A stretch of 62,913 nucleotides of DNA, filler included, from Reclinomonas americana ATCC 50394 (taxonomy: Eukaryota), in assembly GCA_048213135.1 (NCBI GenBank). It is 9 parts of 9 records of this genome, joined end to end, with 100 filler letters (N's around TTAATTAATTAA, not from the genome) between each part and the next. Parts side by side here need not be neighbours in the genome. Positions count along the whole stretch, not along the records: positions 59,056 to 62,913 come from AFZH01017741.1; 8 more parts are not named here. The stretch is one strand, 5' to 3'. The notes below the pieces were generated by a model. The model made no database searches. It saw only the letters and a program-made list of their open reading frames with translations, and was not told where the DNA came from. The position numbers were made by a program, and so were the translations under genes. This document shows positions 3,289 to 62,913 of this stretch, piece after piece (the first letter of the stretch is position 1; each line of letters starts with the position of its first letter).

Positions 3289-5161
3289 TTACTGTTTTGG
3301 TTTACCCTCCTCCAATGCCACGTAGTCGGTCAGCACCGGCAGCTCCTGCGAGGCATTGCTCGTATTTCTCATTCGTGTCAACTGAGACAGCAAGAGAGTG
3401 AGCGAGTGAGGAGGAAGGCAAGGAGAGGGGCAGCAGAGGTAGCGCACCGTCGCTTTCTTTGCCCATGCCGTGTTCATCAGCACCGTGAGCAGTAGACTCG
3501 ATGAAGCGTCAAAGCACAGGAACATGATGGTGAGCAGGCTGGCGGAGGTGGCAGATGTGAGTGGGTTGGTAGAGGAGAGAGATGAGATGCTCGCACGCAA
3601 CGCCAAGTTCTTGTAGGCGAATGGTTGTGCACTGAGGATGCCCGTCAGATACACTTGCACGGTGAGGACGAATGCGGCCTCCGGGAGCACGATGATTGAG
3701 AGCTGCGAGGGGGGAAGGGGGAGGATAGAGCGAGAGGGAGGGAGAGCGAGAGAGTGGTGAGCGAGAGGGGAGCAGCGAGAGGGGGAGAGCGAGNNNNNNN
3801 NNNNNNNNNNNNNNNNNNNNNNNNNNNNNNNNNNNNNTTAATTAATTAANNNNNNNNNNNNNNNNNNNNNNNNNNNNNNNNNNNNNNNNNNNNCGAGAGG
3901 GGGAGAGCGAGAGGGAGGAGCGAGAGAGGGGGAGATAGCGGAAGAGGAACGACGCAAAAGAACAGGGGAGAGAGGGGACACGGTGAGCAACACGAACACC
4001 ATGAGGGAAAAGAGAGCGACGATCGCCGAACCTTGATGAGCGCCTTGAAGGCCACGAGCGAATGTCGCCGACATAGGCCACGAATTACCGTCACCAACAC
4101 GGCCGCTGCGCAGTGCATCACAATAAGACGTTGCGCTTACAAGAGAGCAAGGAGGAAGCAAACGCAACTCATGATCGTAAACAGCAAAAACGACAAGGCA
4201 TAGATGAACTGGAGAGGGGCGAAACAAATGAATGAAACAAGGAAGCTGTCAAGTGCTGAGAATAGCGAGGACTCAACAGCAGTGTTGGCAGTCAGCAGCG
4301 GCTTGTGCAGCGGCCATGGCGGGTGATTCCACATGAGGCCCTGCGTCGTGTAGATGCCAATCTGCCAACACCGCGTCAGCAACAAGCGAGCACGGAACAG
4401 GAGTGATCCAGAGGTCACGCAACTGCATTCAGCACCACATACACCGCCGTGGCCACAATAACCCACTGACTCAGTTTCGCCACTTTCACAAGAAGCCACG
4501 ACCTACAGACACAGCAGTCAATCGCTCGCCCATTGCCACGCAGGCACAAAGACACGCACCACATGGTAATGAGCAGCATCTGACGGAACAACCCCACGAC
4601 AAAATACGCATTAAACTGCGTACTGGAGTGGGAACTCGGTCCAGCTTGCGGATATATACACAGGAACTGATCATCAAACGCATACACGGCAATACCTAAG
4701 AAAAAACATGTAAGAGACAGGTGGAACATGAGAGGACAACAATCCGACATGTGCGCAACAGATGCACTCTGCAAACGAGGCCACGCGGAGCAACTGATAC
4801 AACCATCGCTGCAACTGACTGTCCATCTTATCCTGCTTGTGCCCAGAGCGAATCATAAATCTGTGAGAATGAGAATGAGAATGATGAGAACTGGTGTTCG
4901 GGTACGGTTTTCATCGTGTTTTCCTCGCCTTCTTCTGCGATCGGCAATGATGTTGTATACAAATGCGACAGCGGTGGCTGCGGAGCCAATGATGCCCTCG
5001 GCCTGTGTCCATTTTTTCTTTATATTGAGAGACATAGTAAGAGAAAGAGATGCGCGCACAGACAAAGACGCGACTTGCAAGATGGAGACCCATGCTTGAC
5101 AGTGTGCAAAGCTCTCGGGGAAGGCGGGTGGGTACGGGTCAGGAGGAGGAGGCCCGCTCAT
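3289..5161 (-). CDS. Multi-pass membrane protein, about 7 TM (GPCR-like topology), family unassigned
   Basis: In-frame splicing from MSGPPPPDPYPP joins hydrophobic segments (AEGIIGSAATAVAFVYNII, VASFAECICIAVYAF, YFVVGLFRQMLLITMW, WVIVATAVYVVLNAIGIY, FLVSFICFAPLQFIYALSFLLFTIMTAVLVTVI, LSIIVLPEAAFVLTVQVYL, LLTIMFLCFDASSSLLLTVLM). The gene spans the gap at 3794-3893. Confidence 0.6.
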
Positions 5162-9487: not shown

Positions 9488-12400
9488 TTATGATGGTGGC
9501 GAGTGCGAAAAGGCCATGGGTGGTGGCGACGATCTTGACGACGCGGGCCGCGGTGACAGGAGACCAGATAGCCGCTCAACCTCGGCGTCACGCTGGTCCA
9601 ATTCCATCTGCGTCAAAGAAGGTCAGCCACCATTTCTTTTGCTCAAACAATCTCTTCATCTGCCCACCTGCAGCAGCTTTTGCCGCTCCTCCAATTGCTG
9701 CTCACGCGATTGGATCTTGCGCTGCAGTTGCACAATGAGCTGGCTCTGGTACGCCACCTCGCCAGCCTCCCGCGCACGATCTTCCTCCATTTGTTGGACG
9801 CGGCTCCTCTCCGCCTCCAGAGCCGCCGTCAGCGCACGAATGTGCTCGTCGGCGTCGCGGAACCGCTCCGCTGGCGGTCGATTGCGCAACTCCACTTCGC
9901 ACTTGCGCAGATGCGCCACCAGAGTCTCCTCTCGACGCTTGCTGGCATCCAGCTCGTTCTTCAGCGCCTCTGACGAGTCGTACACATCGCGAATGGCCGC
10001 CAGCCCCTCCTGGAAGCGCGCCTGCATCTGTCGCAACGAAGCATTCTCCGTCACAATGTGCTTCAGCTTGCCCTGCATCTCCTGAATCGTCGTCTGCAGC
10101 AGCCGCCTCTCCTCCTCGCTGTGTCCATGGGTAAGCGATAGCTGCACGCAGGCACAGCAGGGCGGCATCATACTCCACGTACCCCTTCTTCACTTTCCGC
10201 TCCTGCCGGGCAAAGCGATCCATCAGCCGCCGATTGTTGTTCTCAAAGTCGGAGCTCCGCGACATCTCCTCGTCGAGTGAGTTCTGCAGCAGCTGGATTT
10301 GCGACTCGCGCGCCGACAGTGCCGCCCGCAACGCTCGCGTGTCGGTGTCGTACAGATCCTGCAGCTCGTGGAACTCGTCGCGCAACGCCGCATATTGCGT
10401 TTGGCTCTCCGAGAGGCGTGCCTGCAAGTTGCGCAGCTTCGGCGACATGTGCTCCCCCATAGCCGGCGACGACGATAGGGAGGCGAGCTCGGCGCTGGAG
10501 TTGAGAGAGGATGGCGGCCGGTCGGGTGAGCCCAGCACACTGCCGCCGGCCGCAACGGCTGCCAGCACGGCCTCTTGTTCGTCGCGCAGGTCGCTTGCAT
10601 CCGCCTGCGCACATTTATAAGAGCAAGACCACGCACTCACAATCCTTGCCTCTCGTACACGAACTCCTTCTCTCATCAGTCCTCTCTCACAGAAAACCCT
10701 TGTTTGTCTTTTACTCTCTCTCTCTCTCTCTCAAACACACACTCAGACGCCGCCTTCATCTTTCACACATCTTCACTGCATTCTCTCGTCTTGTCGCTCT
10801 CCGTCTCTCTCCACAAGATTCTAATACTCTTCCTTCTTCCTCGTGTCATTCCTTGAAGTATGCCGCTTTCGCTTTCTTCCTCGTCTTTGCCATTTTCGTG
10901 CGCGCTCCCCCTCCTTCTTCTCCCCTCCCTGCTCCAAGCCNNNNNNNNNNNNNNNNNNNNNNNNNNNNNNNNNNNNNNNNNNNNTTAATTAATTAANNNN
11001 NNNNNNNNNNNNNNNNNNNNNNNNNNNNNNNNNNNNNNNNCTCTCTCCTCTCCTCCTCTTCCTTCCTCCTCCTCTCCTCTCCCTCTCCCTCCCCTCCCCT
11101 CCCCTCCCCTCCCCTCCCCTCCCCTCCCCCTCTTCCCTTTTACCCCCTCCCCTCTCCCTTCCCTTCGCCTCACCTGACTCTCGGCCAGCGCCCGCGAAAG
11201 ATTATCATTCTCCCGCTGCAACTCCTTTGCGCGATTCTTGACCTGCTGGAACGACCGCTGCAACTCCTCCATCACACTGTGCGCCGCCTCCAAAGTGGCG
11301 CGCATGCGACTGTTGGACTTGCGCAGCACCAGATTCTCCTGCTCGACCGTGCGCGACGAGTGCTCCAGTTCACCCGCCAGCGATGTGGCGTGCTCGTCCA
11401 CCACCACAAACATTTGCCGCAGCGACGAAATGTCGTCCTCCAAATTGGCCACGGCCGCACTCGAGGTGGCCAGCCGTTGCGCCAGCAGCGCATTCTCCGC
11501 ACGCGCATTGTTGTACAGTCGGATGGCGTCGGCGTGCTCGGCACGCAGCTGCGCCAGCGCCTTTTCCAGCACGCCGGTGGTGTGCTGCAATTGTTGTTCG
11601 CGCTGCGGAGGGACATGAAGTGAGGAGTGTGCAAGAGAAGGGGGAGGAGAGAAAAGTGTGAGTTGCGCACCACACGCGTGGCGTTGAGCAGCGCCTGCAT
11701 GTCGCTCAGCTCCTGCCGCAACCGCGCAACATCGGTCTCTGTACGCATATCAGCAGGTGAGTGAGCACGGAGAGGATAATGAACAGCAAGTTTCCAGTCA
11801 GCAGTACCATTACCGTCGACTCCGATCGCCGCCACGGCCGCCGCGGTCGCCGTACCTGGTGATCCCGGTTGTTGCTTGGCGCTCAGAGCGTCGGTCAGCA
11901 TCTGGATGCGCTGCTTGTGCACATGCAACGCCTCCTCCATCTGCCGCAGCGCAGCGGCGTCTCTCCGACTCGACTCCAGCTCGCTGGTCAGGTACTGGCA
12001 CTGTAGCCGTGACGCATCCAGCTGCGCACGCAGCTCATGGACACTATCACCGCCGCCGCCGCCACCACCACCTCCACCATTCCGCATTCGCGCCTCGGCA
12101 GCCTCACGCGCCGTCCGCTCCTCCTTCAGCTCGCGCAACACTCGCGCCAACTCCACCGCCACTCGTTGCGATTCGCGCTCCGCTGCCTTCACTTGCTCCT
12201 CCAGCTGTTTGCTTCGCCGCCGGGCACGATCCAACTCGCGACTCAGTGACTGTGGGAGATCGCTGTCAGCGATGGGAAGAAAAGGGAGAGACACGTGCAT
12301 TGACATTGCCAAACCTCTTGCTCTCCGGCGCCGGGGACGGGCGACAGTGAGGGGGAGATGACACGACTGCGCTCCGTTTCCAACTCGGACTGCAGCCTGT

Positions 12401-37048: not shown

Positions 37049-37874
37049 CAAGGAGAGGGACTGTGAGAGGGAGAAGGAAGGTAGAGAGAAAGAGAGTGCA
37101 GGAGATACAATGAGACAGCGACACCAATGAGAGAGAGAAGGCGAGGGAGAGAAAGAGTGGGTGTGTGAGAGAGAGCAAGACACCAATGAGAGAGCAAGAC
37201 ACCAATGAGAGAGGGTGAAACAGCGAGACAGTGTGCATTCGACAGTGTACGTAGAAAAGTGAGAGCAGGGGTGAAGGAGAGAGTGAAGGAGGCAGCGAAG
37301 GAAACGCAGAGAGACGGTTGCACCAACGAGAGAGGGTGAGAGAGAGAGAGAGAAACTTAGAGGCAAAACGAGAGACAGTGAGACAGTGTGTGCGAGACAA
37401 CTATCCACGAGGAGCGAGAAACAGAGACAGTGCTCACCAACGAGAGAGGGTGAGTGAGAACAGGCAACGTCCAACGCTAACACGACAGTTACAACGTTTA
37501 CACGCCACGACAAATCAACAGAGTGACAGGGAAGAGCATCGGAGACAAGAGGAGTGACACACACGAGTAATAGTCTTCATATTACCCAATGCAGCCCCGA
37601 TTCCTCTGCCTCCTCTGTCTCGCTTGTCCTCCATTCCTTTGCCCCCCTCGCCCTCCCCTTCCCCTCGATCCCCCCTCCACCTCGCCACTCACATCCCAGG
37701 CCCAGTCCGCATCCACCCAACACGCCATAGCCCAGATACAGCAGNNNNNNNNNNNNNNNNNNNNNNNNNNNNNNNNNNNNNNNNNNNNTTAATTAATTAA
37801 NNNNNNNNNNNNNNNNNNNNNNNNNNNNNNNNNNNNNNNNNNNNCTCTCTCTCTCTCTCTCTCTCTCCTCCCTC

Positions 37875-38578: not shown

Positions 38579-40127
38579 CACGGACAGCCTACTCCCGCGT
38601 CACCGCCGAGCCAGCAAGGCGGTTACCCGCCACAGGGCGGCGCGCCTGGTTACCCGGCGCCTCCGCCTCCGGGTTACCCGCCGCAGGGCGCGCCCGGTTA
38701 CCCGCCACCGCCGGGCTCCCAGCCGGGTTACCCGCCGCAGCAGGGCTACCCACCGCAGGGCTACCCGCCACAGGGATACCCGCAGCAGCCTGGTTACCCG
38801 CCGCAGGGATACCCGCCGCAGGTATACCCGCAGCAGCCGGGGTACCCGCCGCAGGGTTACCCGCAGCAGCCGGGATCGTATCCTGGACAGGTACCGGTTC
38901 GCTTGCTCTCTATGGCCTCCTCTTTCTCTGCTTGTGTGTGACTCATGCTCTGTGTGTAGCCTGGATCGTACCCGGCTCCGCAGGTGTGTCTGTTGGTGCT
39001 GCTTTGCAACTGCTGCAACGCGCGCGCGCTGAAATGCATCTTGTTGTTGTCGATATAGGTGACTGTCGTGCAGACGACGGTGAAGGAGCAGGGCAGCTGC
39101 ATGGAGCGCTTCAAGCTGGCGATTCCGCGCATGCGTCTGTGGTGGGGCATCATCTGCTTCATCTTTGTTGCGTCTTTGCTTGCAGTGCATGATCGCCAGC
39201 CGGTGAACTCACGTTCCTGTTTGTTAGAACCTCCTGCCGGGTGCGCTGGGCACGCTGATTGGTGCCATTGCTGGTGGCAGTGAGGGTGCGTGGCATGTGT
39301 TGCAATGCCTGTGTCTTGTTGTCCAGTGCTGACTCGTGTTGTGCAGAGTGCTGCTGCCCGATCCCGGTTCGCCGCGAGTGCATCATGCGTGTGTGGGCGA
39401 GGATGATGTGCATTGATTGCTCACGTGTCATCGTTACTGTGTGCAGAAGGGAGACGGTACCGCCAAGCAGGATGTGGCCACGGGTTGCGGAGGTGAGTTG
39501 GAGTGGAACGTGAATTGTATCTATGCGAGAGATGCTGATTATCATGTCATGTCTGTGCAGTGTTCTGGATTAACTTCTGGTTCGCCTCCGCTGCTCCGTC
39601 GTGAGATTGGTGTCCTGTTCTAACCTGTGTCTCGCTTTTTTGCGACTCGCCATGACCAATAGGGTGTGGTGAGTGATGCACGATTGCAGCAGCTGTGCAA
39701 GCCAAGAGTTCGTTGCTGACCATCTCTTCTTTCTTCTCTCTCTCTTTGCAGGGTCCTCCAACTCGCCAGCACACTGATCTTCTTTATTGGTTTGTCGAAA
39801 TATTGCTACCTTTCCTTCCTTTGCGTCCTAGCTTAATTCTTACCTTGCCGTTCTGCATCCCAGGCTACGTGTGGTGTGTACGCAACGCCATCAACCACGT
39901 CGTACTCGTGCAGTCTCTTACTGCTTTCTCGTGTGCAGGGGCATCATGTGGGGTGTGCTGATGCTCACCTCGTCGATCGAGGTGTCGTCGCAGGGCAACC
40001 GCGAGGGCAAGGTTCGCCACCTCTACTCACCACCGCACTCCTCCCCTCAATCCACCCATTCACCTCTCCTCGTTCCTTCCTGCCTGCACAGCAAACCACG
40101 ACGCAGACGGTCATTGTCAACAGCTGA
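38579..40127 (+). CDS. SPEC3/stum-like membrane protein with a GYPPQ-repeat N-terminus (start codon unresolved)
   Basis: PGYPPQ repeats, then [30 protein letters not shown]...[31 protein letters not shown]. This matches the SPEC3/stum pattern (N..PG.GT; LQL....GW.W.I.WG). It is built from many tiny exons. Confidence 0.75.
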
Positions 40128-45849: not shown

Positions 45850-45949
45850 NNNNNNNNNNNNNNNNNNNNNNNNNNNNNNNNNNNNNNNNNNNNTTAATTA
45901 ATTAANNNNNNNNNNNNNNNNNNNNNNNNNNNNNNNNNNNNNNNNNNNN

Positions 45950-50898: not shown

Positions 50899-51042
50899 NN
50901 NNNNNNNNNNNNNNNNNNNNNNNNNNNNNNNNNNNNNNNNNNTTAATTAATTAANNNNNNNNNNNNNNNNNNNNNNNNNNNNNNNNNNNNNNNNNNNNGA
51001 GCGAGAGCTCGCTGCGGCTGAAGTGCGGCGATCAGAAGGAAA

Positions 51043-51244: not shown

Positions 51245-53815
51245 TCACTGACGCTGGCAACGCTGAGCCGCCGTCTGCGCAATGTGCGCCGCGGAGAAGC
51301 CAGCCGCGCATGCTTCCACAAAAAAACACTAGTGAGGCGATGAACGAATAGTAACACTGCGACTCAGTTGTGTTCCTTCACCTTGGCGCAGGAAGCGAGC
51401 GTACTTGAAGCCGTAGGTGTTGTCCATGAGGCTGTCGTCGCCCGGGCAGGCGCTGTCCAGCATCTTCATCGCCGACAGCATGCAGTTAGTGTCCACCGGG
51501 GTTGAGCTGCATGGCGGGTACATATTATGAGGCATGAGGTGTGTGCATCCAGCACAACAATCCTTTACGCAACGTGGTGCACACGTCGTCGCCAGCACGA
51601 CGCTGGTCGAGCGCCTTGGCGCCCTCGATGCCGAACAGATCGACCGCCAGCATGCCAAAAGTGAGATCCACGCGACGGCGGTGCTCCTCGATGACCGCCA
51701 GGCGTGCGCCAATCACCAACTGCATCAGCCCCACAGAGGAGAATTCAGATTAAAAAAGCACGATGCACGCTGCGCAGAGTGGAGAACAGCGAAACTCGCT
51801 CCTCCTCAGACGTCGCATCCTCGTACATGAACTGGTGGCGCTTCAGCTCCACATCCTGCGAGAATGGTCGTGAGAAAAATATACACGCAAGGCATTTTGA
51901 TTTGGTCGTCAAACACACAGACACACCCACGACGGCACAGGGGCGCGACGAGCGGCCTCGCGAGCATTGGCAGGCGGCGTGCGGGTGGCCCGTCGGCGCG
52001 CTGGAAGCGAGAGAGAGAGAGGGAATAGGTGAGAATTGTGCGAGAAGCAAATCGGGTTCACATACACATGCTCACCAGCGCGGTGTGCGCGCGAGAACGG
52101 CGCGTTGGAGAAGAAGTCGCTGATGGGCAAGCTGCGCGATGACGGAAAAATTGTTTGTTGAGTGGATAAGTAACGAGGGGGGGGGGGGGGTGCACATGGC
52201 ATGAGAACGCGCACCTGGCCATCGACGAGTCGCCATACTGTGACGCGCACACACGCACACACGCGCATTCAGCGAAGTGAGGACATGCACGAAAAGGAAT
52301 GTGACTTTTGACGCACCTGGCACACGTGCGACTCGGTGGTGTTGGCGCGCACGGCCACAAACTGCTCTTGCAGCGTGTACGTCGAGTCCGACACCTCCTT
52401 CTCGGTGTTCAGCAGGAAGTCAATGGAGAAGCAGTCCTGGGAAGCGAGGAGTATGTAAGCGAAGGAGAGACGTGTGGGCGAGATGAGCTTGGCCGACGAC
52501 TCACATTCAGGTACGTCTGTGCGTGTGCATGACAAACAAATGAGAAACGAACATGTTAACACGACACACAACGACAAAGCACGGCACGCACATGGAATTT
52601 GGAGTCGTAATCGCAGGCGTAGCTCTGCAGTGTACCGAGGGTGAGTAACAGAGTGCGACGCTCACATCACATCACTTGTGCACAAGCGCACGCAACGCTC
52701 TCGTCCGGATCGGCGGCCGTGACAGCGTAGACGTTGGGCGGCAGCGTCTGACCGGCAAACATCGAGCCACTCTCGCACGCCTCCACGTAGATGACCAGCT
52801 GGCTGTACATCTGCTGCTGGTGCATGGTGTTCAGCGTCTTGATCAGCTGCTCCACCGTCAGCACCTGCGAGTGGAAAAACGTGCCGGGGAACGCCACCAG
52901 GCCCGGAGCGCCGTGGTCCGCAAAGTAAATCGTCACACGATCATTCGGGCCCGACTGCACAGAGGAGACATTGGCACGCACGCACACACGACGAAGAAGG
53001 GGGAGGAGAAGATGAACAGCACCTTCAACGTCTTGCCAGTGCCGCCCGACGGAACTTGGCCCTGCACCGGACGGAATGCGTAAGCAAAGCAGACACGAAA
53101 GACGGAAGAAAAGAACGGGAAGTTGGCTCACCGTCAGCACTTTCATAAAGTTCTCCGGCGACACCAGGTGCTTCGTGTAATCCTTCGGCACACCCGGGTA
53201 CTCGTTCGGACCCTGCACCATCACAGTGTGAGACAAGCATCGCAGACAACGAGGCCACAACTGTGCAAGCATGCGAAACTCCAGGATCTGCATGCACACA
53301 CACACGCACGGGGAGGTCAGTGAGCACTGGTGAAGCAGGAAAGCACAGTGAGCTCACACGCAACAGTTGATCACAGTGCCCTTGTGCGGGTTGTCGATGC
53401 TGTCGGCAATGTCATCATAGTGGAACACAATGCTGTGATTGTTGTTGTTGCATGTCAGTGTCATGAGAGAACACAACAACAAAGAGTGCATCATCGTAAC
53501 ATGTTGGAGTCGGGAATGCCATTGGCTGCGAGAAAACGCGTGTGTGAGAGAGTGTGTGTGCTTCTTTTTTTGCACTCGTTCTCACATACACACACCATGC
53601 AGCATCTGATACGCGTGGTAAATGTCGCTTTGATGGCGCTGCGTGAGAGCGTGTGAGACAAAGAGCATGTGTGCATGTGTGTATGAGAGAGAGAGAGTGC
53701 GCACATAGTTGTCGTATCCCTTGCTGCCGGCGACAATCACTGCCCAGTGAGCGCCAGTGGCCGAGGCGCAGGCCACCGTGCCCAGCAGAAGCACGAGGAA
53801 GAGAGCAGCGCGCAT
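51245..53815 (-). CDS. LGMN: Legumain / asparaginyl endopeptidase (peptidase C13)
   Basis: Signal peptide, [36 protein letters not shown].G...Y.GVPKDY, the catalytic YFADHG and YVEACESGSM, YAVTAA...ESSYAC, SHVCQYGD, and a C-terminal prodomain. More than 15 exons. Confidence 0.95.
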
Positions 53816-54148: not shown

Positions 54149-57100
54149 ATGGCGAGCGCTGGGAACTGCCCGGAGTGTGCGTGCACTGCGGCCGAGTTCA
54201 AGTGCAATGCCTTCAAGGCCGCCTCGCTCGCATGCATCGAGTGCTATCACACACACTTGCCCGCGGAAGGAGGCGCATCTGCTGTTCCCTCTGCTGCGGC
54301 TGCTCCACCCCCGCTCATCCAGATGAATCCCTCGGGCGCTGCTCTGGCTGCCGCGCGTGCAGCAGCTGCACAGAATGCGCAGGTGTGTGTGTGTGTATGT
54401 GAGTGCGTGTGTGTCTTTGATTGTGGTCTCTCTCATCTCTCGTTGTGCACAAAGGCGGCGGCGAATGAGCGGCCGCCGCAGAGCAACGCGAATGCACCTG
54501 CCCCGCTCTTCTCGCCTCTGCGTCAGCAGCCGCAGCCGCAGCAGCAGCCACAGCAGTCTGTGCGACCGCTTGTGGTGGCGGCACCTCCACAGCAGGTGCT
54601 GCCACTAGTGCAACCGCCTGCGCGAGAAGTAAGCTCTCCGCCACTGCCTCTGGTGCAGCCGCCGTCTGCTGCACAGCAGGTGCTGTCGCCACAGCCAGTG
54701 CGCCCTCCTCCTCCTCCGCAGCAGGCACAGTCGCCGCCTGTAGCCCAACAAGTGCTGTCGCCACAATCGGTGCGCTCTCCACCACAGCAGGTGCAGTCTC
54801 CGCCACCAGTGCCACAGGTGCGCTCTCCACCGCTGCCACCACCGCAGCAACAGCAAGTGGTGTGTGTGTGCTATTGTGCTGTGTTATGAACTCCGTGCAT
54901 GTTCGGTCTTCTCACCTGGATCTTCACGCAGGCCCCAACAGGCTTGCGCGAAGCCGCTGTCAAGGTCACTTCCCTCTGACTCGCCTCCGTCGACTACATT
55001 GTGTGGTGCTCACTCCTGTCGTGCGCAGCGTGTTTGCGAGGCTCTTCCGGACCTGTCGCGGTCCGACGCGGAGCGTGAAGTGGACGCCATCGATGTGAAT
55101 GAGGTCCGTGCGGTGCAGGTGCTCATCGACCGGCTGCGTACGCAGAAGCAGTCGGTAGGCATGGCAGCGGCCCTGGTGCCGACACCGGTGCGGCCGACGA
55201 CGATGGCGGACCAGGCAAATATTGCGGCCAGGAAAGTTTACTTGAGCGAGGTCTGTTGTTGCAGTATCGTCACCCGAGTGCGTGTGCTCTCTCTTCTCAC
55301 ACATATTTCGGTCTCTACCATCACAGAAAGTCAGAGAATTTGCGCCTGAGGTGAAGGATCGGGTACTGAACATGGCGTTTGCGTCGTACGAGTCCACGCT
55401 CTTCGATGACACTCGAATCATGGACCAGCTGATGACGTTTGTGTTTGATCATATAGATGATTTGGTTCGTGCGCTGGCCATTGTGTGTGTACGTGCTTTG
55501 CTGGTTCTGAAGTAGGTTTGCTGCGCGGGCAGGGTCCATCAGGATCCGCAGCAGCAGCAGCAGTACCGGCGGCACCAGCAGCAGCAATTGTGGAACCGAC
55601 GGGCGTGATGCCGCCGCCACAGCCGGGCCGTCGGCCAGAGTCGCCAAGGCCACAGATTACGTCCCCATCACACGCAAAGGTACCGAGCGCCTCATCTTCG
55701 CAGTCATCCGCTGCAGCCGTCGTCGACATGTACCCCAACGAGGGTCCCTCGAATCCGCGACCTGTACAGGTGCTACAAGTCGCTATCCCTTGCTCCTGTC
55801 CATCTTGCCTCACAGTTGTGACGTGCAGTCGCCTGTCGAAGCGAGCAACGACCCATCATATGCTGAGCTTTTTGCTGCTGCTCACCGTGGCTATGTGCCG
55901 GAAGTGACACCCGGCGGGCCGACTCCTGGCGGGCCAGAAGATGACATCCCAGTCGGTATGCACTCGTGAGAGAAGCAATGTGTTTCTCACATGACTGATG
56001 CCGTTCGTCTTTTGTTGCACAGATGTGCTGTTGCGCACGTTGCTGGAATCTGCGTGCGCTGTGATGGACTTGCGTGTGAGAGTACTGGAAGAGATTCGCA
56101 GTGCTGCATCACTGGTTTGGACTGTGTGCGATCGTTGAGCTGTTTCGTGCGGTGTAATTACCGTACCGTGCCTTCTCCTTTTTTTAGGCGGACCTGGACG
56201 ACGCCGAGGAACGGTACGGCAAATTGGTGGAGCGCAGTCAGACCATCCACGGACGAACCGTGGACCTCAACGCACCCATGGCGGAAAAGTCGGATATCTT
56301 CAGAGAGCTTCGTCGTTTACTGCCGGCTGATTTCCGCCACGCTGCTGACCGGCGACGAGCGGCGCTAGAGGAGGAAATGTCTGCCGCGGAGTGGGGCGGT
56401 GACGGTGAGTCGTGTTTTCGGCATCATGTCGTCTCTACATGCTCTCATATTGCTGCTGACTTTTTGTATCGTGCGCTGTCAACGCAGACTTGGAGAGCTC
56501 TGTGGTGAGTGCTCGTGCTTGACTTTCAATGATTTTTGNNNNNNNNNNNNNNNNNNNNNNNNNNNNNNNNNNNNNNNNNNNNTTAATTAATTAANNNNNN
56601 NNNNNNNNNNNNNNNNNNNNNNNNNNNNNNNNNNNNNNACTCTTGCTGACTGTTGAGCTTTCATGTACAAGGATCATGGTTTTGATATGATGGTGGCGCA
56701 GGTAAGAAATGCAATACTCTTTTTTCCTTTCCACTCTCGTACAAAGCTAAGCGGTGGCCTCGGTTCTCAGCGACCACCTGGTGCTCCTGGCGCGGCCGCT
56801 GCCGCCTTCAGCGTGGCCGCCGACGACGACGACATCTTTGGCGGACGAGGTGCGGCGGCCACGCTTATTGTACGACCACAACAACCGCAGCCACCGCCGC
56901 TTGTCGGTGGTTACGGTGGTCCTAGTGAGCTGCCTGGCGTGAGCGCTCGCTTGGATCGTGGTCCGGCTGGGCCACCGGCCGGGGCGCGTGATGGCGGTCC
57001 TCCCCCCGTGAAGGGTTTCGTGCCGGTCGCTGCCGGTGGTGCCGGTCGAGCACCTGGTGGATTTGCTCCCGCTGCTGGTGGTGCTGGTCGAGCACCTGGT

Positions 57101-58955: not shown

Positions 58956-59055
58956 NNNNNNNNNNNNNNNNNNNNNNNNNNNNNNNNNNNNNNNNNNNNT
59001 TAATTAATTAANNNNNNNNNNNNNNNNNNNNNNNNNNNNNNNNNNNNNNNNNNNN

Positions 59056-60165
59056 TTAAGCCAATCTCGCTGTTACGAGACTCTTTTGTCAGTGTGCGTG
59101 TGTGTCTCTGTACTGCAGCTCACTTTCCCTCTACCATTGCAGGTTCCACGGCACGCATGAAAAGGCAGTTGACGCGATTCTTGATCGCTCGGTGAGTTTG
59201 TGACTCAAAGTGCCTGCATTGCGAATTGTGGTGGTTGACATGGAGCGCGCAGATGATTCCGCCGGCGGACTTCAACGTGGATGTTGGCTGCCAGGTGGCC
59301 GTGGCCGTGGGTGATGGGCGAGCAAATGTCAACTGCTTGGCCGACTGCCAGTTGTGCCGCCAACATCGACACGTTCGCAATCAGAACCCCGCCTGCCACA
59401 TGTTCGGTCTTGGAGGTTTGTGCGTGCAGTGACGAATATATTATGTGAATGACCGAGCTCACCATAATGTCGCGAGCGCAGTATACTTTGCCAATCTGTT
59501 GCAGTTGCGAGAGTGCAGTAAGTGCGACTTGTGATTTGTCATTGCCGACTGATCGTGCGTGTGTCTGCCGTATCGCAGGAAAGCCGACGTGTACACGTCG
59601 CCCCGACCGAACGACAATGCGGTGTGTTGCTATTTTGTCTGTTTGTGCGCAGCAGAGTGTCGTGCGTCCTCACATGCGTGTGTGTACAGCGAGCCATTCT
59701 CATGTGCTCCGTGCTGCTTGGAGACATGGAAACGGTATGTGTGTTTCCGCTCACTGCCCTACTGTGCTTTTTCTTGACTGGCAAATGCAACGTGCAGGTG
59801 AACGCTTTGAACGCTCCAGACGAGCGACACGATCATTTCCTGCCGCCTCGCATGGGCCAGGGGCGTGACAGCCGCCGCTTCCACAGCGTGTACGTGAAGG
59901 GATCGGGAAATTTTGCCGGACGTGACGCTGTGACCGTCAAGAACGATGAATGTGAGTGGGAGTGGCGCGGCTGCTTGGTGCGATCAGATAAACTTACTCA
60001 CTTGCTACCCCACATCTGCAGAGTTGCGCGAGGATATCGATCGAGCACTGCACAGGTTTCACCTGCTTGTTCACTCACGTTTCTCTCGTCGTTTGCGTAC
60101 CGCGCAGTGTCATTTTCCACCCGTACCAGATCCTCCCAAATATTCTCATCCACTACACCAAGTAG
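59056..60165 (+). CDS. PARP / ADP-ribosyltransferase catalytic domain (H-Y-E type)
   Basis: Spliced product: SLFHGTHEKAVDAILDRSMIPPADF...HMFGLGVYFANLLQKADVYT...RAILMCSVLLGD...FHSVYVKG...KNDEYVIFHPYQILPNILIHYTK*. Stop TAG at 60163-60165. Confidence 0.85.
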
Positions 60166-60446
60166 TGAGCAACGTGGAGGCACGAACAATGAAGGAGACA
60201 TGTTTCGATCCGTGTCCTGCCAAGTGCAAGTGTCAATAGTTCACAGAAGGGCTGCAGCAGCTGTGATACTATGACGAACAGAACAAGAGGTCGTCAAGCG
60301 CACCAGCGCACTGACGGCAGACCAACAACAAACCGACGTCGACTTGTCCCGCTTGATATCAACGGTCAAATCACGAAAAACGACGTCGGTGCACTCTCCA
60401 AGCAAGCCAGCACACCGACACCCGTCTCTCTATCTCTCTATCCCTC

Positions 60447-62913
60447 ATGGCGGCATCAGCAGGCGCTGCCAACAGCAGCACAGGTGCCAGCAGCAGTGGG
60501 ATCATTCACAGCGGCAGTGCCTCCTCCGCCAGCACCACTGTCGTCTGGTCTCAATGCCACATGCTCGGTGCTCTTCCCGCCCCTCGCCAAGGCCACTCCA
60601 TGGTCGCAGTCGACAAGCGCGTGTTCCTCTTTGGCGGTGCGCGCACACGCCCACACACACACTTGTCCGCGTTAGAGCTTTTTCAATATGTGGTTTTTTC
60701 TGACCCTCTGTGGCGCGCACAGGATGGGGTCTGGTGGCCAGTAGCACACCATCGTCCTCCTCGACCTCTTCATCATCGTCGACACGAGCGACAGGGCGAT
60801 CGTTGGACGATTTGTTTGTGTTTTCGTTGGAGTCGCATCGGTGGGAGCGTGTGGAGACCACCTGTTCGGCATCGTCGCCGAGCTCGTACACGGGACCATG
60901 TGCGCGCAGTGAGCATACGATGTTCTCGTCGGGTGCACAGCTGTTTGTGTTTGGTGGCATCGATCAGGATGGACGAGTGCTGCGCGACATTCATGCGCTC
61001 AATCTTGGTGCGCCAGTCGCGCTCCCCTTTACACGAGTGGCGAGTCTTGTCTGATGTATATGTCTGTCTCTCTTTGTCAGTTACCATGCAGTGGGCCGAG
61101 GTGCTGCCGACGGGCATCAAGCCGCCAGCACTGTATGGCCATGTTTCGTAGTGGGGAGTTGATGCTTTTCCGATGGCTTGTTTGTTGTGCTGACGACACG
61201 GCTGCAGAGTGCCACTCGCATCGGCACATGTGTGTACATTTTCGGTGGGCACACCGACAGCACGATCAACAGCCTCTCCAATCGCCTCTTCATGTTCAAC
61301 TTGCAGTCGTACTCGTTGGTGGAGCTCACCCCTCGCGCTCTTGTCGGCAAGGGGGTGCGTGTGTGCTCGTTCGTGTCCTTGCTATCCTTTCGCTCACGCC
61401 AACTGTGGCGCAGTTGCCGAGTGCGCGTGCGGGTCACGGCGCAGCCGCCGTCGGCGACGTGATCTACTTCTTTGGTGGAGTCACCGACACTGGTGAGTGC
61501 GGCTGCTTGCGCACCATGACTCATGCTGCTGCTGCCTGATAACATGGTCGCCACGCAGGCTTTGAGAATGACTTGTGGCTGTACGACTCATCGGTCAACT
61601 CGTTCACGTTGCTGGGCGAACAAGAAGATGTTGCGCATGGCAGAGGAGGGGGAGGAGAAATGACTCGACCCTCATTCACCTCCTGCTGCGCAGATCTGCA
61701 AGCGCGCGTACCAGACCATGGCGGCGTATGGTCGCACTCTGGTGATCTTTGGTGGGTGGAATCCGGGCAAGGGCACGTTTAATGATTGCTACATTGCCAA
61801 TTGCGGTTGCGTACTTGCACGTGAATCACCTCGCTGCCTCTTGAGTTCGCTGACAAGTATTGCTGACACAGAGAAACTCGAATGGGACAAGGCCAGCGCG
61901 GCGTACTCGGTGGTGGGCGAGCACCCGCTGTCGCCAACGTCACCGAAATCGCCAGACGAGGCACGCAAGTATGTACGCCCCCGCAGCAAGCACGCATGGA
62001 GCCTGGTGTTTGGCGCCCGCCAGATGCAGCTGTTCCTCTTTGGCGGCGTGTTGCGTCATCCCCTTGCTTCTCGTCTGCCGTGGCTGCCATCGCGTGATTG
62101 CATCGCTCACTTTGCAACGCAGCGGAGACTTCTCCGACCCATTGCAAGACTGCTACATGGGCACATTCACGGCACCGTTTCGCCGAACATTCCGCACCGG
62201 AGGTAATTCGTGATCATCTATCGCTGTCACGAAATGCTCTGCATGGACTCACGGCGTCTTTGCGCAGTTATGCAATCACCCAAGGAGCGGCTGCGTCAGA
62301 TCAAGTCGCCGAGCTCCGACAGGTTAATTGCGTGTGCTTGGCGTGTTTTGCTCTCCCCCGGCGTCGCACTCTTCTTACCTGCCTCCATTGACAGTGAGAG
62401 TAGCGAGGATGAGCACCGATCGTCGGCATTCCCGCACACATCGCGTGCGCAGTCCTTTATCAACAAGCTGTCGGAGAAGGCCACAGAGCCCTCCACTGTG
62501 TTTGGTTTGAATCTGGAGCACGACGAGATGAGGAAACAACGACCGTTTCGTACTCTAGAGTGTGTCGTTGTGGACGGCTGCTGGGCTCTCATCTCACTTT
62601 CATTATCCCTCCACCAGGCTTCGTCGACAGTCATCTCTTCTCGCCGGTGCGCTTCTAACTACTGGCCTCTTCTGTGCATTGCTGAAACTGATCGATCTGT
62701 CTTGCAGATGACGACGTGACGCGCGACGCCAATCGCGCCCGCACTCTGAGGTTTGCTCTCGAGGAGATTTTGCCGCGTGATCAACCAGTTGCGCACGCTT
62801 TTGCACCGTCCCACTCTAGGCAACCGCTGACTCGAGCACAGCAATCTGGCGCCGGGTCGAGGAGGAATTCCCTTAGTGGTGCTCGCCGGGCCTCCTCGCT
62901 CTCCATGCCAGTA
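60447..62913 (+). CDS. Kelch-repeat protein (runs off the window end)
   Basis: Repeats PAPRQGHSMVAVDKRVFLFGG, ARSEHTM...LFVFGG, LYGHSATRIGTCVYIFGG, SARAGHGAAAVGDVIYFFGG, RAYQTMAAYGRTLVIFGG and RPRSKHAW...LFLFGG. Confidence 0.9.

Follow-up and report, generated by a model that had tools for sequence, protein, structure and literature searches.

A candidate one-nucleotide exon within the catalytic motif of a PARP-like gene of Reclinomonas americana

The adenine at position 60022 (A60022) of the DNA analysed here is probably a constitutive exon of one nucleotide in a PARP-like gene (ADP-ribosyltransferase fold) of Reclinomonas americana ATCC 50394, as judged from the genomic sequence. The window, that is the whole stretch of 62,913 nucleotides that was analysed, consists of small contigs chained via N44-TTAATTAATTAA-N44 linkers, identifying the source as a draft assembly, and contains ordinary eukaryotic genes, including those for FANCL, kinesin, C2H2 zinc fingers, a PITH protein, a short-chain dehydrogenase, legumain and a Kelch protein. 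A model with two introns around a one-base exon was the best supported on every computational test that was run. The same arrangement, with the single base completing a Tyr codon, had been put forward in an initial annotation of this DNA; splice signals, intron lengths, micro-exons elsewhere in the window and PARP profile scores all speak for it, while splicing of the RNA through A60022, a sequential order of intron removal and an active protein product are what we infer from them.

Structure and reading frames of the PARP-like gene

The last contig of the window begins at position 59056, within an intron of the PARP-type gene, and the 5′ part of the gene is missing. Since the gene is cut by the contig start, its intactness cannot be demonstrated. 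In translation, the visible exons resemble a PARP-type catalytic domain over its C-terminal two thirds, and the following features, all on the plus strand, were assigned (slashes in sequences mark exon-intron boundaries).

59144..59191, plus strand: exon E1, encoding Phe-His-Gly-Thr..., with the candidate His of the H-Y-E triad assigned by eye; outside the local profile alignment
59253..59415, plus strand: exon E2, ending ...His-Met-Phe-Gly-Leu-Gly; the profile alignment begins at its last residues
59482..59503, plus strand: exon E3, 22 nt, encoding Val-Tyr-Phe-Ala... with the triad Tyr; a GTTGCG donor follows at 59504
59579..59621, plus strand: exon E4, 43 nt, from the gene model and profile alignment
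59690..59734, plus strand: exon E5, 45 nt, from the gene model and profile alignment
59798..59951, plus strand: exon E6, 154 nt, ending AAC GAT GAA T (Asn-Asp-Glu plus T) at a phase-1 boundary
59952..60021, plus strand: intron 1, 70 nt, donor GTGAGT, acceptor CTGCAG, branch motif TACTCACTT
59956..59961, plus strand: rival donor GTGGGA, which would make a single intron of 152 nt and the sequence Glu-Cys-Asp
60022..60022, plus strand: proposed one-base exon, A, predicted middle base of the Tyr codon
60023..60107, plus strand: intron 2, 85 nt, donor GTTGCG, acceptor GCGCAG, branch motif CACTCACGT
60108..60165, plus strand: last exon, with the third base of the Tyr codon, 18 codons (Val-Ile-Phe-His-Pro-Tyr-Gln...) and a TAG stop at 60163–60165

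The least certain part of the gene model is exon E2, where a long Cys/His-rich insertion separates the His motif from the Tyr motif. All seven introns in the visible part of the gene have intact signals and are of typical size, the five upstream of E6 measuring 61–75 nt. The branch-point adenine of intron 1 lies at 60000, in a CTCAC motif 22 nt upstream of the exon base, and that of intron 2 at 60077, again in a CTCAC motif, 31 nt upstream of the last exon. The Tyr codon would thus be assembled from bases 59951, 60022 and 60108 in three exons. The letters and coordinates given for positions 59952–60107 in the initial annotation proved correct in every instance on re-reading.

The exons flanking A60022 end and begin in phase 1 and phase 2, respectively, which are incompatible, and the single base reconciles them. 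Translation with A60022 included gives Asn-Asp-Glu-Tyr-Val-Ile-Phe, and omission of the base by joining the GTGAGT donor directly to the acceptor at 60107 gives a frameshift, for which reason this splicing was rejected. Removal of intron 1 alone creates a TAG immediately after the Glu codon, made up of T, A and the G with which the second unit opens. A donor at GA/GTGGGA with a 152-nt intron yields Glu-Cys-Asp-Val-Ile-Phe in frame and without a stop. These four outcomes (NDEYVIF, frameshift, TAG on reading on, and NDECDVIF) reproduce the translations first reported for the locus. The last exon is in frame under two canonical splicings only, one using the one-nucleotide exon and the other the GA/GTGGGA donor. 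Both the sequence anatomy and this frame logic are direct observations.

Further arrangements were tried and discarded. A middle exon of 34 nt (60022–60055, donor GTTTCA) gives TAG; an acceptor shifted by two bases to 60023 puts the last exon out of frame, as does the combination of the GTGGGA donor with the acceptor at 60021. A TG-AG intron starting at 59953 is in frame (Glu-Cys-Val) and was rejected as non-canonical and 155 nt long.

Intron lengths, splice signals and micro-exons in the window

Introns were predicted with our own dynamic-programming gene parser, whose score is built from codon log-odds and from terms for donor, branch, acceptor and length. Training was iterative and used the same ~63-kb window; ORF pieces with Pfam support served as the starting point, and donors were at first required only to have GT. 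The first passes over-predicted (586, then 218 introns), and the final prediction comprised 174 introns, of which 136 were 57–89 nt long (median 68), 2 were 101–139 nt and 36 were at least 140 nt. The last group had mostly negative scores and was located where neighbouring genes had been wrongly chained by the parser. With a flat length prior, 127 of 180 introns still measured 55–89 nt and four fell at 90–139 nt; a few predicted introns of 150–160 nt scored positive under this prior. All intron statistics come from this parser, whose output was checked by homology for the legumain gene and for a portion of the PARP gene.

The legumain model (51386–53815, minus strand) has 16 introns, needed no sequence correction and matched a profile of 58 homologues with 428 bits in one continuous alignment; its introns all lie within 66–83 nt (16/16). 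A search of a protein collection with the legumain protein gave best identities of 40–56%, with nothing from R. americana or a close relative. Judged by the predicted, the legumain and the upstream PARP intron lengths, introns of 70 and 85 nt fit the norm of this genome and one of 152–156 nt would be about twice that norm. Intron 2, with 85 nt and its branch point at −31, sits at the upper edge of both distributions. Parser and legumain model together therefore describe an extremely intron-dense genome with a narrow intron size class and with tandem introns a few bases apart.

The second of the two introns begins with GTTGCG, which the initial annotation had treated as a real, shifted donor, and this view held up. 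It was the commonest donor hexamer among the 136 short introns (22), followed by GTGCGT (21), GTGTGT (10), GTGAGT (9) and GTGCGC (9), and it also ranked first in the early parser passes, which were blind to donor sequence. A strong 3′ end was found 48–105 nt downstream in 29 of 79 GTTGCG occurrences against a background of 14.6%, a significant excess; the hexamer-enrichment test is noisy, and GTGAGT did not reach significance in it. GTTGCG also starts three of the 16 homology-checked legumain introns as well as one PARP intron (59504) that is spanned gap-free by the PARP profile. Given its top rank, its enrichment and its use in the legumain and PARP introns, GTTGCG is a genuine common donor type here. 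A literature search for GTTGCG or GUUGCG as a splice donor returned matches to primers only.

Donors with T at +3 (n=52) have the consensus GTTGCGT with no preference at exon position −1, and those with G at +3 (n=69) have the consensus G/GTGCGT, with G at −1 in 57 of 69. The first consensus equals the second shifted one base out of register. The donor of intron 1 has T at −1, unlike the 57 of 69 donors of its own class with G. An Rfam search of the window returned no families, and hence no snRNA gene with which the donors could be compared.

When scored against the 138 predicted short introns, intron 1 had a donor score of 2.52 (46th percentile), a branch score of 7.71 (99th) and an acceptor score of 4.7 (38th), and intron 2 had scores of 2.30 (43rd), 5.57 (51st) and 6.1 (73rd), respectively. 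All six splice signals are thus within the range of these introns, and both lengths fall within 57–89 nt, so that the fit of the locus to the signal and length statistics of the genome is observed. The internal acceptor-plus-donor site scored 14.7, compared with no more than 9.2 for the best split in 11 predicted introns of 115–185 nt. We also scanned both strands (124,418 positions) for tandem units, defined as an acceptor followed by a donor within 0–12 nt, with partners 52–95 nt away. Two sites passed, the A60022 site and an 8-nt legumain exon, and 20 windows simulated with a first-order Markov model gave none; as the thresholds (donor at least 2, acceptor plus branch at least 10) were set just under the target's scores after these had been seen, and the scoring model was trained on the window, the counts show rarity and do not constitute a formal test. 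A rough estimate assuming independence gave a chance of ~1.3e-4 for such a site in a random 156-nt interior.

Other very short exons occur in the window. The 8-nt legumain exon (53287–53280, minus strand) is flanked by introns of 77 and 67 nt and is needed for a gap-free local alignment near the conserved Ile-Asn...Gly-Val-Pro-Lys-Asp-Tyr block; a 12-nt legumain exon (52516–52505, minus strand) is likewise needed for a gap-free local alignment. Exons of 10 and 16 nt were also predicted by the parser. A looser scan for exons of 1–7 nt with coding flanks, which was unable to score A60022 because of the stop 55 nt downstream, gave one site only, a 3-nt exon at 51719 that conflicts with the homology-checked legumain model and was discarded.

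PARP family comparison and alternative explanations

Reference sequences were collected in two steps. A degenerate DNA pattern for two PARP motifs retrieved 109 stretches from viral contigs, of which 97 had the motifs in frame and 95 a domain-length ORF; 72 unique domains were kept as set 1, and all eight members of a sample were assigned to PF00644 with E-values of 1e-21 to 7e-28. Set 2 combined these with 120 further PF00644 proteins (120/120 listed with PF00644), giving 192 sequences. The initial annotation had suggested aligning the translated product to PARP homologues as a check, and the Tyr model came out best with both sets. It scored 24.6 bits against the set 1 profile (72 sequences), compared with 19.3 for the Cys-Asp protein, 19.0 for the protein truncated at Glu and 4.0 for the best of 768 control ORFs, the latter being the six-frame ORFs of the window. 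Against the set 2 profile (192 sequences) the values were 26.8, 19.6, 19.4 and 6.9, respectively. The gain of the Tyr model over the alternatives was therefore 5.3–7.2 bits, and its fit to the PARP family pattern is an observed one. The match is modest (25–27 bits), the references being PARP1-like viral and environmental sequences and not the gene's own subfamily.

The aligned part of the Tyr model extends from the Gly-x-Tyr-Phe-Ala block over Asn-Asp-Glu-Tyr-Val-Ile-Phe and into the final strand. Joined across the introns on either side of it (66 and 75 nt), exon E3 aligns gap-free to the G-I-Y-F-A block in the PARP profiles, and the Glu of E6 falls in the invariant Glu column. Gly-Val-Tyr-Phe-Ala (Tyr block) and Asn-Asp-Glu-Tyr (Glu block) both match invariant profile columns. 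The His of E1 (Phe-His-Gly-Thr, by eye) is not aligned by the profiles because of the long insertion in E2. In both reference sets a Tyr, Phe, Ile, Val or Trp comes directly after the Glu (70 of 72 sequences in set 1, and 117 of 118), and an insertion between the Glu and the strand occurs in none of the 192 references. The last exon aligns to the C-terminal PARP strands in the Tyr model only; as no reference has an extra residue, it can be read as PARP sequence only when one hydrophobic or aromatic codon connects it to the Glu, and the lone A supplies such a codon.

Searches with single exons or read-through ORFs of the PARP gene gave no Pfam families and, in the PDB, only a chance match to a starch synthase (E = 1.3), and E6 found no relative in the protein collection. 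Three metagenome loci considered as relatives (L001–L003) were dismissed as chance pattern matches with stops in their frames or low-complexity text. No orthologue or paralogue with the same arrangement was found in the protein collection or the metagenome scan.

The simplest competing account is a single intron of 152 nt from GA/GTGGGA (59956) to 60107, giving Glu-Cys-Asp-Val-Ile-Phe, with the internal sites a relic or rarely used. Such an intron would be in frame and stop-free and would require no exotic exon; GTGGG-type donors occur in four of the 136 predicted short introns, one of them GTGGGA itself, and the few positively scoring introns of 150–160 nt also favour it. We nevertheless regard it as unlikely. 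Its donor scores −2.28, lower than all 138 predicted short-intron donors, and a GTGAGT of the consensus class stands 4 nt upstream; its length is outside the 57–89 nt of the 136 predicted and the 66–83 nt of the 16 homology-checked introns, and the well-formed internal 3′ and 5′ sites, with a chance of ~1e-4 and absent from all 20 simulated windows, would be left unexplained. The resulting Cys-Asp protein gains nothing in PARP score over the truncated one (19.3 versus 19.0; 19.6 versus 19.4) and requires an insertion that 192 of 192 family members lack.

Two further explanations concern the state of the gene and of the assembly. If only intron 1 were spliced and the protein ended at the Glu, or if the gene were a pseudogene, the PARP-like stretch downstream would be a relic and the arguments from reading frame would be void. 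Splicing of intron 1 alone does place a stop right after the Glu, and the gene is cut by a contig end and carries an odd Cys/His-rich insertion in E2. Yet the last 18 codons are open and then end in a stop, and they add 5–7 bits to the PARP match only if joined through the A; the seven visible introns are intact in signals and typical in size, and a domain stopping at the Glu would lose the last strands, which are present in all reference sequences. A decaying or truncated gene is accordingly quite improbable. An assembly or sequencing error, either a one-base indel near an exon boundary or the loss of bases from a longer micro-exon, could have arisen in a fragmented draft of small contigs joined by N linkers, and one extra base at the end of E6 would allow a single 156-nt intron to give the same Glu-Tyr-Val. 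This we consider very improbable, as there are no homopolymer runs around either boundary, an intron of 156 nt would remain double the customary length and would keep a full acceptor/donor pair in its interior, and the 16-intron legumain model in the same window was obtained from uncorrected sequence.

Possible mechanism, significance and comparison with known systems

For the favoured model with two introns and a one-base exon, the following course of splicing appears most probable. Introns would be recognised as short units of fixed size, ~57–89 nt, from donor through branch to acceptor (intron definition). The 156-nt stretch from E6 to the last exon contains two such units and would therefore be excised as two successive introns, and either order should work because each removal leaves the signals of the other unit intact. 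The A between the units would be kept in the mRNA, linking the phase-1 to the phase-2 boundary and completing the Tyr codon next after the catalytic Glu. Translation would then continue in frame through the final two strands of the domain. The size rule would disfavour removal of 152–156 nt in one step and in this way may secure inclusion of the A. The initial annotation also raised the possibility that skipping of the A serves as a switch for catalysis; this is speculation without support, and skipping would need an intron of 156 nt, about twice the length normal in this genome.

A more radical reading is that intron definition is strictly ruler-type here (57–89 nt only) and operates with a second major class of 5′ splice sites, GTTGCGT, one-base exons being a regular by-product genome-wide. 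Exon size would then be irrelevant to splicing, one-base exons would result from the very high intron density and be no freak, and retention of intron 2 (TAG after the Glu) or skipping of the A could act as a regulated off-switch. We hold this reading to be decidedly unlikely.

If transcripts confirm A60022 as a constitutive exon, it would be one of very few one-base spliceosomal exons and, as far as the literature searched shows, the first outside plants and fungi; it would also place a one-base exon within an ADP-ribosyltransferase's catalytic motif. Gene finders would get the structure of this PARP gene wrong, either truncating it or inserting Cys-Asp. Intron size is so uniform here that length alone flags hidden micro-exons, and a genome-wide search for introns of about double length whose flanking phases disagree could recover further exons of this kind. 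As the phenomenon is already documented, the gain would lie in breadth and annotation quality and not in a new principle.

Some superficially similar arrangements can be set apart from the A60022 locus. In a stwintron, one intron is nested within a splice signal of another, and the signal of the outer intron comes into being only once the inner one has been excised. The A60022 site is not a stwintron because both units are complete in the genomic sequence, each with donor, branch and acceptor, and neither interrupts the other. In the mitochondrial cox1 gene of placozoans, a single-base exon flanked by self-splicing introns was reportedly missed by annotation; the mechanism there differs, being organellar and not spliceosomal. 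At a recursive splicing ratchet point, as outlined in excerpts of a paper on a plant micro-exon (PMC4674806), a 3′ splice site abuts a 5′ splice site and the intron is removed stepwise with nothing retained. The stretch around A60022 would likewise be removed stepwise, but there is one base between AG and GT, the frame depends on it, and the whole stretch measures only 156 nt, unlike the very long introns concerned; since one base is retained, the site is not a zero-length recursive splice site.

The initial annotation had called one-nucleotide exons very rare and named the APC11 gene of Arabidopsis thaliana as a known case. The APC11 exon stands, but its company has grown to include a Fusarium gene and 13 exons of Coprinopsis cinerea, and one-base exons are rarer in print than in nature. 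The single-nucleotide exon of APC11 was proven by cDNA and by GFP-fusion assays in protoplasts, and its authors propose intron definition with the two introns removed successively, according to the portion of their article available (Guo and Liu 2015, PMC4674806). As described there, APC11 shares with the model proposed for our locus one base between two spliceosomal GT-AG introns, inclusion that is constitutive and a requirement of the frame, and the same mechanism may apply to A60022. The cases differ in that A60022 is known from genomic DNA alone and in that its introns belong to a narrow size class, one of them with a GTTGCG donor, whereas the plant that carries APC11 has introns of more varied size (PMC4674806).

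The one-nucleotide exon of the P450 gene CYP621A in Fusarium is, in the part of the report to hand, documented by 20–24 orthologues that keep AG-G-GT, an intronless relative and SRA junction reads (Nelson and Syed 2026, PMC12940212). As proposed for R. americana, the apparent intron there is more than twice the median (139 versus 56 nt, compared with 156 versus 68 nt here), and the exon leads from phase 1 to phase 2, forms the middle base of a codon in a conserved motif and is missed by automatic gene models. Unlike CYP621A with its orthologues, intronless relative and reads, A60022 is supported by the sequence of the window and by protein families (PMC12940212). In C. cinerea, long-read annotation lists 13 one-nucleotide, 57 two-nucleotide and 27 three-nucleotide exons in the section of the study available (PMC12230235). 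That organism is a fungus with long-read transcript support, in contrast to the R. americana locus, and resembles it in that its genome is rich in introns, these are short, and tiny exons belong to ordinary gene structure (PMC12230235, same section). These counts show that one-base exons need not be unique oddities, and the A60022 locus is best described as a candidate one-base spliceosomal exon of an already known type rather than a new type.

Intron length and candidate micro-exons

Introns predicted by our gene parser, which was trained on the same window, had a very narrow length distribution across the whole window, with 136 at 57–89 nt (median 68) and almost none in the 90–140 nt range, also under a flat length prior. 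Given this narrow distribution, an apparent intron of ~130–180 nt in itself flags a hidden micro-exon. The gene encoding legumain (peptidase C13), whose spliced model scored 428 bits against a profile of 58 homologues, has a coding sequence of ~1.3 kb with 16 introns, each of 66–83 nt, and includes exons of 8 and 12 nt. Additional candidate small exons were predicted elsewhere.

51386–53815, minus strand: legumain gene, spliced model compared with homologue profile
53287–53280, minus strand: legumain 8-nt exon
52516–52505, minus strand: legumain 12-nt exon
39601–39751, plus strand: predicted 151-nt 'intron'
39864–39873, plus strand: predicted 10-nt exon, typical introns on either side
34974–34959, minus strand: predicted 16-nt exon, typical introns on either side

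The 151-nt 'intron' can be divided well around a candidate 6-nt exon (39663–39668, plus strand), leaving 62 nt on its 5' side and 83 nt on its 3' side; a GTGAGT donor follows the candidate exon directly, at 39669. Judged from the sequence, this is a possible in-frame micro-exon of 6 nt.

Classes of 5' splice site

The most frequent 5' splice-site hexamer was GTTGCG, found in 22 of the 136 predicted short introns of the whole window and at the donors of 3 of the 16 homology-checked introns in the legumain gene.

2574, 19771, 42171, 59504, 60023 and 61630, plus strand: GTTGCG donor examples
53364, 52696 and 51573, minus strand: GTTGCG donor examples

Donors with T at +3 (n=52) showed no base preference at −1 of the exon, and their consensus was GTTGCGT; those with G at +3 (n=69) had the consensus G|GTGCGT, with G at −1 in 57. 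The GTTGCGT consensus looks like G|GTGCGT shifted by one base of register. A literature search found no report of a GTTGCG-type donor class.

Setting of the PARP-type gene and its exon E2

The window consists of small draft-assembly contigs placed end to end and joined by eight N44-TTAATTAATTAA-N44 linkers, and genes at contig ends are truncated, among them the PARP-type gene at 59056. The next gene 3' of it encodes Kelch repeats, starts ~275 nt past the PARP stop codon, continues beyond the window end and is interrupted by numerous short introns, of which several have a GTTGCG donor.

1482–1581, 3794–3893, 10941–11040, 37745–37844, 45850–45949, 50899–50998, 56539–56638 and 58956–59055: linkers
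60440–62913, plus strand: Kelch-repeat gene
59253–59415, plus strand: PARP gene exon E2, Cys/His-rich stretch

Exon E2, located between the exons carrying the candidate His block and the Tyr block, contains a 57-nt GT...AG intron candidate. Its Cys/His-rich stretch could represent a metal-binding insertion, or else an in-frame intron that has gone unrecognised. Owing to this stretch, the distance from the His to the Tyr block is much greater than in reference PARP domains.
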